Positions 6,607-57,657 of a stretch of 64,000 nt of DNA are shown here, piece by piece. Both the position numbers and the translations under genes were made by a program. Origin of the DNA: Polyangiales bacterium (GTDB lineage Bacteria; Myxococcota_A; Polyangia; Polyangiales; Ga0077539); contig JAXLYG010000005.1 in assembly GCA_046351535.1 (NCBI GenBank), forward strand, positions 357,334-421,333, read 5' to 3'. Numbering within the stretch: position 1 is the stretch's first letter; each line of letters begins with the position of its first letter. The notes below the pieces were generated by a model that saw nothing but the letters and a program-made list of their open reading frames with translations, was not told the DNA's origin and did no database searches.

Positions 6607-6829
6607 CGCCCCAAATCCACCCCGGCAGGAACCTCCGACGTGTGGGCCTCGAAAGGAAACCAGTTGCAACGAGATGGAACCATCGGTAGCAACGCGGGAG
6701 CTCAATGAGACCTTTCGGGCCACCAACGCCTCTCCGCGCGCGTCCGCCCGGCGCCTCGCGTGGGCCGCTGTCACCCGCCCGCGCCGCGCACCCCTCGACG
6801 CGCGTCTGCGACTCGATGCGCGAACCCCG

Positions 6830-8026
6830 GTGGCACCGTTGAACTCGTCGAACCTCTCCTCCAGGCTCCGCTTCGATCGGCACGAGCTCGCGGGCGCCTT
6901 CGGAGACATCGGGACCGACCTCCCGCTGCTCATCGCGCTCATCGCGACGTGCGGACTCGACGCGGCGAGCGTCTGCGTGATGTTCGGGCTGCTCCAGATC
7001 GCGACGGGGATCCTCTACGGGATCCCCATGCCCGTGCAGCCGCTCAAGGCAATGGCCGCGATCATGCTCGCGCAGCGCCTCTCCGCGGGGACCCTCGCGG
7101 GCGGCGGTCTCGTCATCGGCGTGTCGATGTTCCTCCTCGCGGTGACGGGGCTCCTCGACACGCTCGTTCGCGTGGTGCCCAGGGAGGTCGTCCGCGGGAT
7201 CCAGTTCGGCCTCGGCGTGACCCTCGCGACGCTCGCGCTCAAGGAGTACGCGCGCGCCGACGGCCTCCCCGGCTACGCGCTCGCGCTCGTGTCGGTGGTC
7301 GCGCTGCTCGTGTTGCGGAGGCAGCAGCGCGTGCCCGCGCCGCTCGTCGTGATGGCCCTCGGGCTCGCCTACGCCGTCACGGTGAAGCTCGGCGACGGGT
7401 CGTTCCACGGCGCCGTGGGGCTGCGGCTGCCGTCGTTCCACACGCCGACGCGCGCGGAGATCACGCAGGGGGCGCTGCTCCTCGCGCTCCCGCAGATCCC
7501 CTTGTCGCTTGGCAACTCGGTGATCGCCACGAGCCAGACGACGCGAGACCTCTTTCCCCAGCGCGCGGTGTCGGTGCGAAAGATCGGCTTCACCTACGCG
7601 GCGATGAACCTCATCGCGCCGTGGTTCGGTGGGGTTCCCGTCTGTCACGGCTGCGGCGGCCTCGTGGGCTTCTACGGCTTCGGCGCGCGCACGGGGGGAG
7701 CGCCCGTGCTCTACGGCGCGATGTACCTCGTCCTCGGTCTCTTCTTCGCGCCCGGGTTCGCGCGCGTCGTCCACGTCTTTCCGATGCCGCTGCTCGGCGT
7801 GGTGCTGCTCTTCGAAGCCGTCGCGCTCATGACGCTCGTGCGCGACGTGGCGAACGAGTCGAGCTCGCTCTGGGTCGCGCTCGCGGTCGCCGCCGTGGTG
7901 GTGGGGCTCCCCTACGGCTACCTCGTGGGCCTCGTCGCGGGCACGCTCATCGTCTGGGGCGTGCGCCGCGGATGGGTGAAGACCCCCTCGATCGCCGTCT
8001 CCGACACGACGCCGTCGACGGGGTGA
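6830..8026 (+). CDS. MOT1/SulP-like family membrane permease (putative molybdate/sulfate transporter)
   Basis: Hallmark N-terminal motif ELAGAFGDIGTDLPL (MOT1-type GDLGT). About 10 predicted TM helices. Start is uncertain: GTG 6830 or ATG 6671. Confidence 0.55.
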   Translation: MAPLNSSNLSSRLRFDRHELAGAFGDIGTDLPLLIALIATCGLDAASVCVMFGLLQIATGILYGIPMPVQPLKAMAAIMLAQRLSAGTLAGGGLVIGVSMFLLAVTGLLDTLVRVVPREVVRGIQFGLGVTLATLALKEYARADGLPGYALALVSVVALLVLRRQQRVPAPLVVMALGLAYAVTVKLGDGSFHGAVGLRLPSFHTPTRAEITQGALLLALPQIPLSLGNSVIATSQTTRDLFPQRAVSVRKIGFTYAAMNLIAPWFGGVPVCHGCGGLVGFYGFGARTGGAPVLYGAMYLVLGLFFAPGFARVVHVFPMPLLGVVLLFEAVALMTLVRDVANESSSLWVALAVAAVVVGLPYGYLVGLVAGTLIVWGVRRGWVKTPSIAVSDTTPSTG

Positions 8027-8036
8027 GGGGGCGTGC

Positions 8037-8897
8037 TCACCGACCGCTGTTGACGTAGCGCCAGCCGAAGCGCCCCTTGATGCAGAGGTGTCCGTTGGTC
8101 ACCGACGACTCGACGGGCGACGTGACCTTCACCACCTGATCGTCTTGCACGTGCAGCGTCACGGCGCAGCCGACGCCGCAGTACGGGCACACCGTCGTGG
8201 TCGCCGTCTGCCGCTCGGGCGCCCAGGTCCCCTCGGCGCGCATCCGATGCTCGTCGCGGAACATCAGCGCTCCCGTGGGACACACCCCCACGCAGTTGCC
8301 GCAGAACACGCACGCCGACGCGGGGAGGCCCACTTCGAACTCCGTCGCGATGCGCGCTTCGAAGCCGCGTCCCGCGACGGAGATCGCGAAGGTGTTCTGC
8401 GCGTCGTCGCCGCACGCCTCGACGCATTTGTAACAGAGCACGCACTTCGAATAGTCGCGGACGAAGAGGTCGTTGTCGTCCTTCACGGGCTGCGCGACGG
8501 TGGCGCCGTCGAAGCGTTCGGGGGCGGCGCCGTAGCGCGCTCCCCACGTGCGCAGCGTGTCGGAGAGGGCCGTGTCGACGGACGACGCGAGGAGCTCGAT
8601 CACGACCTTGCGCGAGACGCGCACGCGCTCGGAGTCGGTGCGGACGACCATGCCGGGCTCGGCCTTTCGCGAGCACGACGCGACGAGGGTGCGAGCGCCT
8701 TCGAGCTCGACGACGCACACGCGGCACACGTTCACGGGCGTGAGGTTGTCGGCCTGACAGAGCGTCGGCACGTCGATGCCGAGGGCCCTGCACGCGTCGA
8801 GGATGGTCGCCCCTTCGGGGACGCGCGCGACCCTGCCGTCGATGCTGAGCTCGACGACGCGATCGACGGAGTGCGTGACGATGGGGAGATGCTTCAT
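8037..8897 (-). CDS. NuoG-N-terminal/HoxU-like iron-sulfur subunit (2Fe-2S, two 4Fe-4S, MopB-type 4Fe-4S) of NAD-linked formate dehydrogenase
   Basis: 2Fe-2S ferredoxin Cys pattern, CxxCxxCxxxCP motifs, and C-terminal CPYCGVGC...GHLCIKGRFGW (the N-terminal cluster domain normally fused to FdhA). Confidence 0.8.
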   Translation of the reverse strand: MKHLPIVTHSVDRVVELSIDGRVARVPEGATILDACRALGIDVPTLCQADNLTPVNVCRVCVVELEGARTLVASCSRKAEPGMVVRTDSERVRVSRKVVIELLASSVDTALSDTLRTWGARYGAAPERFDGATVAQPVKDDNDLFVRDYSKCVLCYKCVEACGDDAQNTFAISVAGRGFEARIATEFEVGLPASACVFCGNCVGVCPTGALMFRDEHRMRAEGTWAPERQTATTTVCPYCGVGCAVTLHVQDDQVVKVTSPVESSVTNGHLCIKGRFGWRYVNSGR

Positions 8898-9300
8898 GAG
8901 AGGCCCCCTCCCCGTCCCTCCCCCGCGAAGCGGGGAGGGATGCTGAGAGGCCCCCTCCCCGTCCCTCCCCCGCGAAGCGGGAGGTGCCTGTTGGTAGCTG
9001 GCATGCCCTCACCCCGGCCCTCTCCCGCCGAGGCGGGAGAGGGAGGCTCGGCGAGAGGCAGCGGCGCACGGCGCCCAGGCACCTCGTTGCATCGAAATCA
9101 CCTCTCGCCTCAGCCCCTCGCCCGTTCGCACGTCTGCTCGCACGTCTGCCCACTCCTTCGCCCGCTCGCCCGCCCGCACCCCCGCGCCCTCGTGGCACCC
9201 GTGCGCTCCCTCTCCCGCCTCTGGCGGGGAGCAGGGCGGGGCATTCCAGCTACCAACAGGCACCCTCTCCCGCTTCGCGGGGAGGGACGAGAGGGGCTCG
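8898..9300. repeat. Cluster of REP-like palindromic elements forming a large inverted-repeat structure (MITE-like)
   Basis: Two tandem copies of gagaggccccctccccgtccctcccccgcgaagcggggaggg (8899-8984). tgcctgttggtagctggcatgccc (8985-9008) is inverted at 9238-9262. Further palindromes ctctcccgccgaggcgggagaggg and ccctctcccgcttcgcggggaggg lie on the right arm. Confidence 0.65.
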
Positions 9301-11109
9301 ACGCCCCTCCAGGCCAGAGCGCGAGCTTCACGACGGCGGACTCCACGGCGCTCGACGCGGTCTGTCCGAGGCCGCAGATCGACGCGTCGCGCATGCACGC
9401 GGAGAGCTCTCGCAGCAGCGCGAGGTCTGTGTCTCGCTGCGCGCGTCGATCGGGGCGCGCGAGGCGCTCGATGAGCTCGTGCTGGCGCACGGTGCCCACG
9501 CGACAGGGCGTGCACTGGCCGCACGACTCCTCGCGGAAGAAGCGCGCGATGCGCGCGAGCACGGGGCCGATGGAGACCGAATCGTCGAGCACGAGCACCA
9601 CGCCCGAGCCCAGCGTCGTGCCGCGCGCGCGCGCGTCTTCGAGGGTGAGCGGCATGTCGAGGTGCTCGGCCGTGACGAAGGTGCCCGCGGCGCCGCCGAG
9701 CAGGATCGCCTGCAGCGAGCGGCCCTCGCGGAGCCCGCCCGCGGCCTCGACGAGCGCGCCGAGCGTGACGCCGAAGGGCAGCTCGTACACGCCCGGCGCG
9801 CGCACGCCGAGACGCAGAAGAGCCTCGTGCCGGGCGATCCCTTCGTGCCGAGCGCGCGGTACGCGGCGGCGCCCTCGCGCACGATGACGGGCACGTTGAG
9901 CAGCGTCTCGACGTTGTGAATGAGCGTCGGCTGACCGAAGAGGCCTTCGTCGACGGGAAAGGGCGGCTTCGTCCGGGGCTCTCCGCGGTAGCCCTCGATG
10001 GAGTTGAGCAGCGCCGTCTCTTCGCCGCAGATGTACGCGCCCGCGCCGATCCTGAGGTCGATGTCGAAGCGCGCGCCGCGCCCCATCACGTCGTCGCCGA
10101 GGAGGCCCATCGACCGCGCCTGCGCGATGGCGTTCGCGAGGCGCTCGCGGGCCAGCGGGTACTCGCCGCGGAGGTAGATCCAGCCCTTCTCGGCGCCGAC
10201 GGTGACGCCCGCGAGGGTCATCGCTTCGACGAGCGCGAAGGGGTCGCCTTCGAGGAGCGCGCGGTCTTTGAACGTCCCGGGTTCAGACTCGTCGGCGTTG
10301 CAGACGACGTGCTTCACGCGGCCCGCGGCCTTCGCCACGGCCATCCACTTTCGCCCCGCGGGAAAGGCCGCGCCGCCGCGTCCCGAGAGCCCCGACTCGT
10401 CGAGCTCGCGCATCACCCACGCGGCGCCGACCTCGAATGCTCGACGGAGCGCCGCATAGCCGCCGTGCGCGCGGTACGCGTCGAGGCTCTGCGGGTCGAC
10501 CTCGCCCACGCGCGCGAGGAGCCTCACCGCGGAGCGATCGGTCTGCGGCGTCGGCGCGCGCTCGGGGATCGCGACGTGACGCGTTCGAAGCGCCGCGCGC
10601 ACCGACGCTTCGGTGGCGTGACCGAAGCTGCGTTCGAAGGGGCTCTCGCCCGCGGAGACGAGCATCGCCGCGGGCGCCTGCTCGCACATCCCGAGGCACG
10701 GCGAGCGGTGCCAGGTCGTCGCGGGGTCGTCGTGTGACGGCGCGCCGTGGTGTCCGACGGAGCGTTCGAGCGCGTGGCAGAGGTCCTCTGCGCCCGCGGC
10801 GAGGCAGGCGACGTCGTCGCAGACGTGCGCCACGACGGGGGGGCGCTCGGCGAGCGCGAAGAGCGCGTAGAAGCTCGCCACGCCGTAGGCCTCCGCGGGC
10901 GGAACGTGGAGCTTCTGGCACGCGTAGCCGAGGGCGCTCGGAGAGATCCACCCGAAGCGCCCTTGAATGGCGTGGAGCGTCGGGAGGAGGAGGTGACGGC
11001 GTGCGCGCGCGCTTCGAAGCGAGACGCGGTCATCGAGGGGGCCGAGCGAGGCGTCGATGAGGGCGCGCTCGTCGTCGGTGGCTTCGGTTGCGATGGGGCG
11101 GAGGTCCAC
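9110..11109 (-). pseudogene. NuoE-NuoF fusion (HoxF/FdsGB-like NAD(H)-binding diaphorase subunit) with an apparent frameshift near 9805-9840
   Basis: NuoE-like 2Fe-2S region, then NuoF motifs (GRGGAAFPAGRKW, CNADESEPGTFKDR, GAGAYICGEETALLNS...). Frame breaks after GTRLFCVS and resumes in ORF 9110..9805 with RAPGVYELPFGV...ESCGQCTPCRVG...ICGLGQTA. The C-terminus reads into the REP cluster. Confidence 0.7.
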
Positions 11110-11133
11110 GGGGGGCGCTTCTGCGGGTGTGAG

Positions 11134-13047
11134 TCAGACGGCGGTTGCAGACGCTTCGGAGGCGGCGCGCTCGACGCGAACGGCGGCGGCCTTGAACTCC
11201 GCGGTGCCCGAGCGGGGGTCCGTCGCGTCGATCGTGAGCGCGTTCGTGTCGACCTCGTCGGGAAAGTGAAAGGTCATGAACACGAGCCCGTCGCGCAGCC
11301 CGTGATCGACGCGGAGGGGCGCGACCACGGAGCCTCTGCGAGAGACGACGCGCACGCGCTCTCCGTCACGGAGGCCGAGGCGCTTCGCGTCGCCGGGAGA
11401 CATGTCGACGGTCTCGCCGCGACGGAGCGGAGACGAGAGCGCCGCGGTCTGCACGCCGGTGTTGTACGAGTCGAGCCGACGGCCCGTCGTGAGCGTGAGG
11501 GGGAACTCCGGCGAGAGGTGCTCCACGGGGCCCTCGTTGAGCACCACGGAGAACGGCGCCGCGGGGCCCACCCTCGGCTCGGCCCAGAGCCGCGCGTGAA
11601 GGAAGGGCGTCCCCGGGTGCGTCTCGTCGGGGCACGGCCACTGGATCCCGCCGAGCTCCTCGAGCCGCGCGTAGCTCATCCCGTGGTGCATGGGGCTCAG
11701 CGATCGCATCTCGTCCCAGAGCGCTTCGGGCGATGCCGGTCCGAGGTCGCGCCCCATCCTCCGCGCGATCTCCGCGATGATCGTGACGTCGTCCTTCGCG
11801 CTCCCCGGCGGACGCATCGCGGCCCTGACCCGTTGCACCCTGCGCTCGGAGTTGGTGACCGTCCCCTCGCTCTCGCTCCAGCTCGACGAAGCCGGGAGCA
11901 CGACGTGGGCGAGCTCCGCGGTGGCCGTTCGAAACACGTCTTGCACGACGACGAAATCGACGCCGCCGATGAGCCGCCGCGCGCGGTGCCCGTCGGCCTC
12001 GCTCTGCGCGGGGTTCTCGCCGATGATGTAGAGCGCGCGCATCTCGCCGCGCTCCATCGCGTGGAACATCTCCGTGAGGTGCCAGCCCTTCTTCGGCGGG
12101 ATGGTGCAGCCCCAGAGCGCGCCGTAGCGGCCGCGCACGGCGTCATCTTCGACGTCTTGAAAGCCAGGGAGCTTGTGCGGGAGCGCGCCCATGTCTCCGC
12201 CGCCCTGGACGTTGTTCTGTCCGCGCAGGGGGTTGAGCCCCGCGCCCCAGCGCCCGACGTTCCCCGTGGCGAGGCCGAGGTTGATGAGCGAGAGCACGTT
12301 GTCGACGGCGTTGTGGTGCTCGGTGATCCCGAGCGTCCAGCAGATCATCGCGCGGTCGGCCTTCGCGTACTCCCGCGCCATGCGCGTGATGAGCTCCCGC
12401 GGGACCCCCGTCACCTGCTCGGCGCGCTCCAGCGTCCACGGGAGCACCGAGGCCCGCCACGCTTCGAAGCCCACCGTCGCGTTACGGATGAAGCTCTCTC
12501 GCACCAGGCCCTCGGTCACGATCACGCGACCCACCGCGCACGCGAGCGCGATGTCGCTGCCCACCCGCAGCGGGAGCCACCCCTCGGCCCAGCGCGCCGA
12601 CGAGGTCTCCCGCGGATCGACGACGTAGAGCCTCGCGCCGCGGTGCACCGCCTTGAGCACGTGGTGAAAGAAGATGGGGTGCGTCTCGCGGGCGTTGGAG
12701 CCCCAGAGGATCACCACGTCGGTGTCCTCGACCTCGCGGTACGAGCTCGTGCTCCCGCCCGCTCCGAATACCGTCGCCAGACCGACGACGCTCGGGGCGT
12801 GTCAGGTTCTGTTGCAACTGTCGATGTTGTTGCTGCCCATCACCGCGCGGGTGAACTTCTGCGCGAGGTAGTTCACCTCGTTGGTCGCCTTCGAACAGCT
12901 GAACACCCCGAAGGCGTTGCCGCCGTGATTGTCGCGCGCCGCGCGAAAGCCCTCGGCGACGCGCGTGAGGGCCTCGTCCCAGGTCGCGGGTCGAAGCGCG
13001 CCGTCGGCGTCGCGAACGAGGGGCTCGGTGATGCGTGCGAGGGTCAT
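11134..13047 (-). CDS. fdhA: Formate dehydrogenase catalytic (molybdopterin) subunit, selenocysteine-containing (in-frame TGA near 12802-12804)
   Basis: Two ORFs (12802..13047 and 11134..12717) joined by TGA in the conserved motif NIDSCNRT-U-HAPSVVGLATVFG (compare E. coli FdhF CARV-U-HGPSVAGL). Molybdopterin oxidoreductase motifs follow. Strong AAGGAG RBS before the ATG at 13047. Confidence 0.85.
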
Positions 13048-57298: not shown

Positions 57299-57366
57299 CG
57301 AGACTCCGTTGTCGGGTGTGGCGCATTGCAACGGACGAGCTCGGCGGGAGTTCTTCGCGGCGTAGC

Positions 57367-57596
57367 TCTACTGTCCCGGATGAAGCCTGGGCCTTCACGC
57401 CGCGTGTTGGAAACACGCGGCAGGAAACATTTTGTGAGCATCCTGCGAAAAGTCCCGCTTCGCAGGACTCCCAATCGGAGCCTCGTGCGCGAGTCCCGCG
57501 GAGCGGGACTTCATTCAGATCGATCTCGAACTGCCTTCCCTGCCGCGTGTTTCAACACGCGGCGTGGGGGCGCAGCGCTCGTCCGGGACAGTAGAG
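57367..57596. mobile_element. MITE-like element (~230 bp) with perfect 15-bp terminal inverted repeats and internal palindromes
   Basis: TIRs ctctactgtcccgga / tccgggacagtagag. Near-identical subterminal palindromes gccgcgtgttggaaacacgcggc and gccgcgtgtttcaacacgcggc. Central hairpins cctgcgaa...ttcgcagg and gtcccgc-gga-gcgggac. Confidence 0.5.
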
Positions 57597-57657
57597 GTAG
57601 AAAGACGCGCGGGCGGCCGCGCTTCATCACGCGAGGCGCGGCGCGCGACCGCCGCGG

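Follow-up and report, generated by a model that had tools for sequence, protein, structure and literature searches.

RESULTS

An FDH-like operon in a Polyangiales genome

The window analyzed here, a 64,000-nucleotide stretch of a contig from a soil myxobacterium of the Polyangiales with a G+C content of about 72%, contains a formate dehydrogenase (FDH)-like operon whose genes lie on the minus strand, which corrects an earlier account of the locus. We compared it with three other Polyangiales assemblies, L001 (GCA_052035985.1; 95.1% nucleotide identity to the window), L003 (GCA_964268295.1; 91.7%) and the more distant L002 (GCA_039809605.1; ~82%). The molybdopterin catalytic gene, recognized by Pfam domains and third-position GC, is present as two same-frame ORFs at 13047-12802 (81 amino acids [aa]) and 12717-11134 (about 526-527 aa). 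An in-frame TGA at 12802-12804 of the minus strand joins the two (...SCNRT*HAPSVVGL...), and the same split is found in L001, L002 and L003. The position of this TGA is that of the active-site selenocysteine or cysteine of formate dehydrogenases, and the codon probably specifies selenocysteine. The second gene is a NuoE-NuoF fusion (NuoEF; 9299 to 11109, minus strand) with the Pfam domains 2Fe-2S_thioredx, Complex1_51K, SLBB and NADH_4Fe-4S. Its homologs number in the thousands, are about 601 to 611 aa long and end in ...WPGGAS, and the closest of them come from Polyangiales metagenome-assembled genomes (MAGs). Downstream is a gene of 286 aa (8037 to 8897, minus strand) with Fer2_4, 4Fe-4S and Molybdop_Fe4S4 domains. 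Domains of the 2Fe-2S, 4Fe-4S and Molybdop_Fe4S4 types normally form the N terminus of FDH alpha, and this gene represents that Fe-S N-terminal part as a separately encoded protein.

The order of these genes, with the catalytic FDH part first, NuoEF second and the Fe-S N-terminal part last, is common to the window (8037-13047), L001 (4064-8675), L002 (736-5351) and L003 (3732-8371). The permuted FDH alpha genes adjoin a gene for a MOT1-type molybdate transporter and one for an HTH_17/PBP_like regulator. Between these two neighbors L001 carries an extra segment of ~3.4 kb (L001 9926-13344, against window 6692-6786) with genes of 377, 409 and 331 aa that have no Pfam hit on record; the segment is missing in the window and in L003. 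In L003, numerous single-base indels, as compared with L001 and the window, fragment the operon into many short ORFs, which looks like long-read assembly noise rather than biology.

The NuoEF gene of the window has a 4-nt deletion at 9806-9812 (minus strand) relative to L001 and L003, where GTGTCGGGCGGCGTG has become GTCT----CGGCGTG. The deletion, near 9810, splits NuoEF into two frames between the FMN-binding part and the SLBB/4Fe-4S part, and because of this shift the deposited protein, MFO0644922.1, is a frameshifted 593-aa product ending at 9328. Against L001, dN/dS is 0.06 to 0.19 for all genes of the cluster, 0.11 to 0.13 for NuoEF and 0.064 for the downstream 286-aa gene. Since the part of NuoEF after the frameshift still has a dN/dS of 0.11, the frameshift is either very recent or an assembly error. 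Decay of the operon was considered as an explanation for a tolerated insertion and rejected as a long-term state, given dN/dS values of 0.06 to 0.19 throughout.

Structure of a 402-bp foldback between NuoEF and the Fe-S gene

NuoEF and the downstream gene are separated by a noncoding foldback of 402 bp (134 x 3) at window positions 8897 to 9298, the limits being given by the blastn break against L001. Repeat and pattern searches resolved it into the layout A1-A2-B-C-center-C'-B'-A'. An A-A-B-C…C'-B'-A' organization had been proposed in the earlier note, and every part described there was recovered at its position. Dinucleotide shuffles of the window gave 0.00 to 0.06 expected chance matches for the repeat patterns against 2 to 5 observed, and 0 chance matches were expected for segment B in shuffled controls.

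Unit A1 (8897 to 8943, minus strand) is triplex-motif-like and reads CCCTCCCC-GCTTCGC-GGGGGAGGG-AC-GGGGAGGGGG. It is the tandem duplicate of unit A2 (8944 to 8984, minus strand), with a period of 47 bp (8897-8943 and 8944-~8990). A1 and A2 match perfectly over their first 35 nt, which suggests a recent duplication, and the 41-nt tandem cores (8898-8938 and 8945-8985) differ at 3 positions. Segment B (8983 to 9008) is a 26-nt arm, GGTGCCTGTTGGTAGCTGGCATGCCC, 96% complementary to segment B' (9239 to 9264), its inverted copy with 1 mismatch; the 24-mer at 8985-9008 within it has its inverted copy at 9239-9262, also with 1 mismatch. Unit C (9006 to 9046, minus strand) reads CCCTCTCCC-GCCTCGGC-GGGAGAGGG-CCG-GGGTGAGGG-C from 9043 to 9006, and the second palindrome, 9018-9043, is mirrored at 9206-9231 (85%). 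Unit C' (9206 to 9238, plus strand; CTCCCTCTCCCGCC-TCT-GGCGGGGAG-CA-GGGCGGGG) is a degenerate inverted copy of C, identified from this 85% inverted repeat and from the alignment of the arms. Unit A' (9263 to 9298, plus strand; CCCTCTCCC-GCTTCGC-GGGGAGGG-AC-GAGAGGGG) is an inverted copy of A found by the repeat search and the arm alignment. A1, A2 and C are thus oriented one way and C' and A' the opposite way, which is an inverted-pair arrangement. Alignment of the left arm to the reverse-complemented right arm spans 130 columns at 90% identity and includes several small indels. The center (9047 to 9205), 159 bp that lie outside the mirror, is G-rich on the minus, mRNA-sense strand (G at 77 of 159 positions) and includes a 12-bp tandem repeat at 9126-9149 and a G-quadruplex-type motif at 9161-9189.

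RNA folding, which had been suggested as a check, returned one long hairpin for the whole region (-303 kcal/mol, z = -10.3); the DNA fold had a z of -10.1, and 0 of 100 shuffles folded as well. The element contains 4 of the 12 G-quadruplex motifs in the entire 64 kb, all of them on the mRNA-sense strand, and A, C and their mirror units all fit the G-quadruplex pattern as well. The third-position GC periodicity of the flanking genes is lost between ~9300 and 8897, and the six-frame translation of the element, compared with 5.8 billion proteins in order to detect copies hidden under annotated ORFs, matched nothing at an E value of 10 or below. Scans of the element for terminators and promoters found no terminator-like or sigma-70-like site, and an Rfam search of 8000-10000 on both strands gave no family match, with two chance microRNA-level hits only. 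A group II intron, an integron attC site and a CRISPR array were rejected as identities for the element, as Rfam gave no support and the end motifs do not match. Terminal inverted repeats, a small size (402 bp) and a lack of coding content are features that the element shares with MITEs; to be called a MITE or REP family it would have to be multi-copy.

A second, unrelated inverted repeat lies at window positions 57363-57599, with 50-nt arms that are 82% complementary and 137 nt apart. Its surroundings are relatively A+T-rich and apparently intergenic and contain further small hairpins, and it may represent a further small foldback or else a regulatory region.

Repeat units of the BoxC/PIT/TMECO type

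BoxC, the PIT element and TMECO are names for one G/C-rich intrastrand triplex motif (Holder et al. 2015, NAR 43:10126, PMC4666352); that paper cites earlier work by Bachellier et al. and by Hoyne et al. The TMECO consensus is CCCTCNCCC-N3-6-GGGNGAGGG-N3-GGGNGAGGG, and 3610 copies were counted in 262 proteobacterial genomes, where they form inverted unit pairs, are exclusively intergenic and are unassociated with known mobile elements; the supplementary table has 1 copy in Myxococcus xanthus and many in Azospirillum (PMC4666352). The TMECO single strand forms a triplex in vitro, with none detectable in vivo, and TMECO sites show raised local variability between strains, the motifs being tied to local instability, slippage and repair (PMC4666352).

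Pattern matching to this consensus identified unit C as a type-B unit, with all three 9-mer blocks and the 3-nt second loop. Its first loop, GCCTCGGC, is 8 nt long and so exceeds the 3 to 6 nt of the consensus; four of the 8 bases extend the stem by two G:C pairs, so that the apical loop is 4 nt. None of the units A1, A2, A' and C' conforms to the strict 9-mer pattern. A1 corresponds to the variant CCCTCCCC..GGGGAGGG..GGGGAGGG, A1 and A2 both follow the pyrimidine-purine-purine plan with variant blocks, and A' and C' follow the same plan in the opposite orientation. The repeat unit is a longer-first-loop member of the described family.

When plasmid and chromid records were searched with the element by distant blastn, unit C alone was matched, in unannotated intergenic DNA, with matches in 20 Azospirillum records, 15 places on one Cupriavidus replicon and 13 in Mitsuaria, and others in Pantoea, Variovorax and Sphingomonas. 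Unit C is 90 to 95% identical to intergenic repeats of E. coli, Pantoea and Cupriavidus; in Cupriavidus, Mitsuaria, Azospirillum and Pantoea a replicon has many of these repeats, and the 43-mer of unit C was matched in 4397 of 5426 complete E. coli genomes, at a median of 5 places each. The E. coli units likewise occur in inverted pairs, and strains differ through their gain, loss or partial deletion. The BoxC pair between hrpB and mrcB is full in 3536 of the 5426 genomes and shorter in the rest; no clean empty site was found at this locus, the short alleles having diverged flanks or internal deletions between direct repeats.

On plasmid p3 of Azospirillum argentinense (L013, 395-480), the sequence GATGCCTTCTGGCGGCTGGC immediately upstream of a triplex-motif unit resembles segment B (GGTGCCTGTTGGTAGCTGGC), and GCCTTCTG recurs beyond that unit, on its other side. 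The neighbor sequence agrees with segment B at 17 of 23 bases, a likeness that we judged too weak for a claim of homology; a B-like sequence may accompany such units, or the likeness may be due to chance.

All five units are confined to one locus within the 64-kb window, and the loci of the relatives, ~35 kb in all, contain none of the unit motifs. A second copy of the composite was sought in the window and, by exact 19- to 20-mers, in the GTDB species representatives, the JGI metagenomes and IMG/VR, and none turned up; these collections do not include the source genome, as is evident from the lack of a self-hit in the genome collection. With the B core 19-mer, 185,579 species-representative genomes and the JGI metagenomes yielded chance hits only, and IMG/VR yielded none; one genome contig and six metagenome hits share the 19-mer only, several of them in the same unrelated high-GC context, and they were rejected as copies of the element. 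The A core, too, had no match in IMG/VR. Among plasmid and chromid records, no potential donor matched more than 16% of the element, and no transposase, Y1/RAYT types included, was found among the 45 supported ORFs of the 64 kb.

Filled and empty insertion sites

A comparison with orthologous loci had also been suggested, and L001, L002 and L003 all proved to be element-free. By blastn, L001 1-7815 corresponds to window 17109-9299 and L001 7816-9925 to window 8896-6786. L001 is collinear with the window over 17 kb with few indels, and the sole break, at 7815|7816, falls at window 9299|8896; L003 behaves likewise. At the empty sites of all three relatives (...GCGTC GTGA AGCAT...) the NuoEF stop overlaps the next start with nothing in between, and at the filled site the window reads GCGTCG-[402 bp]-TGAAGCAT, the ends of the element being AGCCCCTCTCG...GGGGGCCTCTCA. 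With three orthologous loci that lack it and have genes overlapping by GTGA, the view that this is an inserted, noncoding, REP/MITE-like palindrome cluster was borne out.

Aligning GCGTCG|TGAAGC with GCGTCG[402]TGAAGC leaves zero bases duplicated or lost, that is, no target-site duplication. Alternative boundaries, with a 400-bp element and a 2-bp TC duplication, also fit and require that a flanking G has changed to A; the base at this putative position is G in all three relatives. The insert is likewise missing from L002, the more distant relative, which makes it a gain in the lineage of the window and not a loss elsewhere. On the sequences compared, this was a single discrete insertion into the GTGA overlap, after the split from the relative with 95% identity. 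It appears to be recent, because the FDH genes have been under purifying selection for most of the divergence.

The earlier note had supposed that the element replaced the native 3' end of NuoEF. The protein is intact to ...LALWPGGAS and the 402 bp are a clean addition, so this part of the claim fails; the native TGA has indeed been displaced from the frame, and no native 3' codons have been lost.

An assembly artifact, such as a chimeric or foldback read consensus, would be in keeping with the MAG origin of the contig, with the suspicious 4-nt deletion in the same NuoEF gene and with the proneness of palindromes to assembly errors. Against it, the insert is unrelated to its flanks and is thus no local foldback, both junctions are base-exact, the remaining 17 kb are collinear with L001 with few indels, and the units are of a genuine and widespread biological repeat type. 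We consider an artifact very improbable.

The element had also been linked to the odd gene order of the operon, as a recombination hotspot that made the split, permuted FDH arrangement, and such repeats have been linked to local rearrangement in E. coli (PMC4666352). The same order in L001, L002 and L003, all of them element-free, refutes this proposal, to which we assign next to no probability. The split FDH gene order, unusual as it is, is ancestral, and the repeat did not bring it about by rearrangement.

Effects of the insert on the flanking genes

The insert falls between the last sense codon of NuoEF, TCG (Ser, 9299-9301), and its TGA. Translation would read through into a tail at 9110 to 9298 (minus strand) that consists of 62 element-encoded codons and a TGA stop at 9110-9112. 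The tail begins SPSRPSPRSGRGCLLVAGMP... and has no coding signature in the GC3 profile. That a NuoF-like ORF runs into the element, as noted before, is true for the frame that encodes the conserved C-terminal domains of NuoF (minus-strand ORF 9110-9805), and for annotation purposes the element explains this over-long ORF. Although the length of the insert is divisible by three, the internal stop blocks fusion to the downstream gene. Read from the DNA, the NuoEF-like frame has gained a 62-codon junk tail, and the stop/start overlap, hence potential translational coupling, has been abolished.

The native start context of the downstream gene, GGAGGA-N5-GTG, is now 402 bp away from it. The last base of the element turns the start codon from GTG to ATG (8895-8897), and an element-borne GGAGG (8907-8911, minus strand) lies 9 nt before this new ATG; the end of unit A1 is the source of both the GGAGG and the A. 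As judged from these motifs, the element donates a replacement GGAGG and ATG to the downstream gene, and structure prediction shows the region of the new ribosome-binding site base-paired. Insertion at a stop/start overlap would be survivable because the end of the element recreates a ribosome-binding site and a start codon.

These features raise the possibility of a functional REP/BIME-like element, whose hairpin would shield the upstream mRNA from 3' exonucleases or attenuate transcription or translation and would thereby reset the expression ratio of the catalytic and NuoEF subunits to the downstream Fe-S subunit. REP/BIME elements of E. coli do have mRNA-protecting or attenuating effects. 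The insert lies between two co-oriented operon genes, its predicted RNA hairpin is very stable, read-through transcription is plausible as there is no terminator T-run, GGAGG-N9-ATG is usable by the downstream gene, and that gene is under purifying selection (dN/dS of 0.064). However, the element is missing in the three relatives and, by protein length (601 to 611 aa), in essentially all homologs, so the operon works without it; it puts a junk tail on NuoEF; base pairing is predicted at the new ribosome-binding site; and BoxC/PIT units tested in E. coli had no promoter or terminator activity (literature summarized in PMC4666352). A selected function of this kind is unlikely in our judgment.

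DISCUSSION

We think it probable that the 402 bp are a non-autonomous, selfish palindromic element assembled from five units of the BoxC/PIT/"triplex-motif" type, together with a unique 26-nt inverted pair and a G-rich center. In this composite, three units point one way and two the other, and the terminal 47 bp would have been duplicated in tandem as A1 and A2 after insertion. The element consists almost wholly of hairpin and shows no clear target duplication, and for these reasons it most likely spread as a folded single strand, in a manner like that of REP/REPIN or IS200/IS605 elements, rather than by a cut-and-paste DDE transposase. We know of no mobilizing enzyme for BoxC-type units. This counts against the selfish reading, and so do the single copy of the composite in the collections searched, the lack of further units in the window and the relatives' loci, the absence of a transposase from the 64 kb, the rarity of the strict consensus motif in Myxococcota and the alternative boundaries with a 2-bp TC duplication. 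Through the insertion, the operon transcript would carry in its middle a very stable hairpin with G-rich non-B-DNA motifs, and the effects of the insertion on expression would be by-products that the cell tolerates rather than a selected function.

A different origin would be filler DNA, from break repair or template switching with snap-back synthesis, or a patch recombined from a foreign, proteobacterial source. The lack of a target duplication under the most parsimonious boundaries is compatible with this, as is the finding of one copy in the collections searched, which do not include the source genome. The strict consensus motif is rare in Myxococcota and abundant in Azospirillum and enterobacteria, and Holder et al. 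tie the motifs to local instability, slippage and repair (PMC4666352). Yet the arms are 90% identical with indels while the flanks are 5% diverged from L001, which is hard to square with recent snap-back; no plasmid or chromid record supplies a donor for more than 16% of the element; and the insertion is base-exact with no target sequence lost. We give filler or captured DNA a small but real chance.

BoxC/PIT/triplex-motif repeats were recognized in E. coli some 30 years ago, and to our knowledge there is still no agreement on where they come from, how they move or what they do. The locus described here provides a base-exact before and after, in which a cluster of such units arrives inside an operon as one 402-bp block. 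That the cluster came as one block, in a phylum where the motif is rare, argues that BoxC-type repeats spread by insertion and do not arise in place. As far as we know, the 402-bp composite, its occurrence in Polyangiales and a clean pair of filled and empty sites at a stop/start overlap are undescribed. A bolder reading, which we hold to be doubtful, is that BoxC units can build a genuinely mobile composite foldback that transposes whole without target duplication. If true, this locus would be the first clean snapshot of such transposition, single-strand mobilization machinery would be shared across phyla, and the elements would be able to mend the genes that they interrupt through a ribosome-binding site and an initial start-codon base that they carry themselves.

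Comparison with known systems

The preferred reading, that of a selfish palindromic element, can be set against several described families. REP, BIME and REPIN sequences are likewise imperfect palindromes, short and GC-rich, that cluster in alternating orientation; they lie between co-transcribed genes and give hairpin-forming transcripts. The REPINs of Gammaproteobacteria are mobilized by RAYT Y1 transposases, and no target duplication is expected of them. Unlike REPs and REPINs, the element does not have the GTAG/CGTC-tagged consensus, CGTC being present only in the native flank; there is no RAYT gene in the 64 kb, and in length the element far exceeds a REPIN doublet.

Long terminal inverted repeats are lacking in elements derived from IS200/IS605, which insert on the 3' side of a fixed tetra- or pentanucleotide. 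The element resembles them in the lack of a target duplication, in having hairpins at both ends and in the plausibility of a single-strand mechanism, and it differs from them in its long terminal inverted repeats and in the absence of a TnpA gene from the window.

The Correia elements of Neisseria, the ERIC/IRU sequences of enterobacteria and the Rickettsia palindromic elements share with it a small size, the absence of coding content, long terminal inverted repeats and location at transcribed sites. Rickettsia palindromic elements extend or alter ORFs and Correia elements bring expression signals; the element does the like, extending a neighboring ORF as the former do and bringing expression signals as the latter do. 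In contrast to these MITEs, it has no clear target duplication and no known related insertion sequence, and one copy has been seen.

The BoxC/PIT/TMECO repeats themselves share with the element the three 9-mers and type-B second loop of unit C, a location between genes, inverted pairs and a presence that varies among close relatives. The differences lie in details of the units and in their assembly. The first loop of unit C, at 8 nt with two extra G:C pairs, is longer than the usual 3 to 6 nt, and A, A' and C' use variant blocks (GGGGAGGG). Five units, a 26-nt inverted pair and a 159-bp G-rich center are fused here in a 402-bp foldback, in a host of the Polyangiales (Myxococcota), a phylum for which the 2015 survey has a single copy, in M. 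xanthus. Finally, this element was inserted into the stop/start overlap of an operon and not into a pre-existing spacer.
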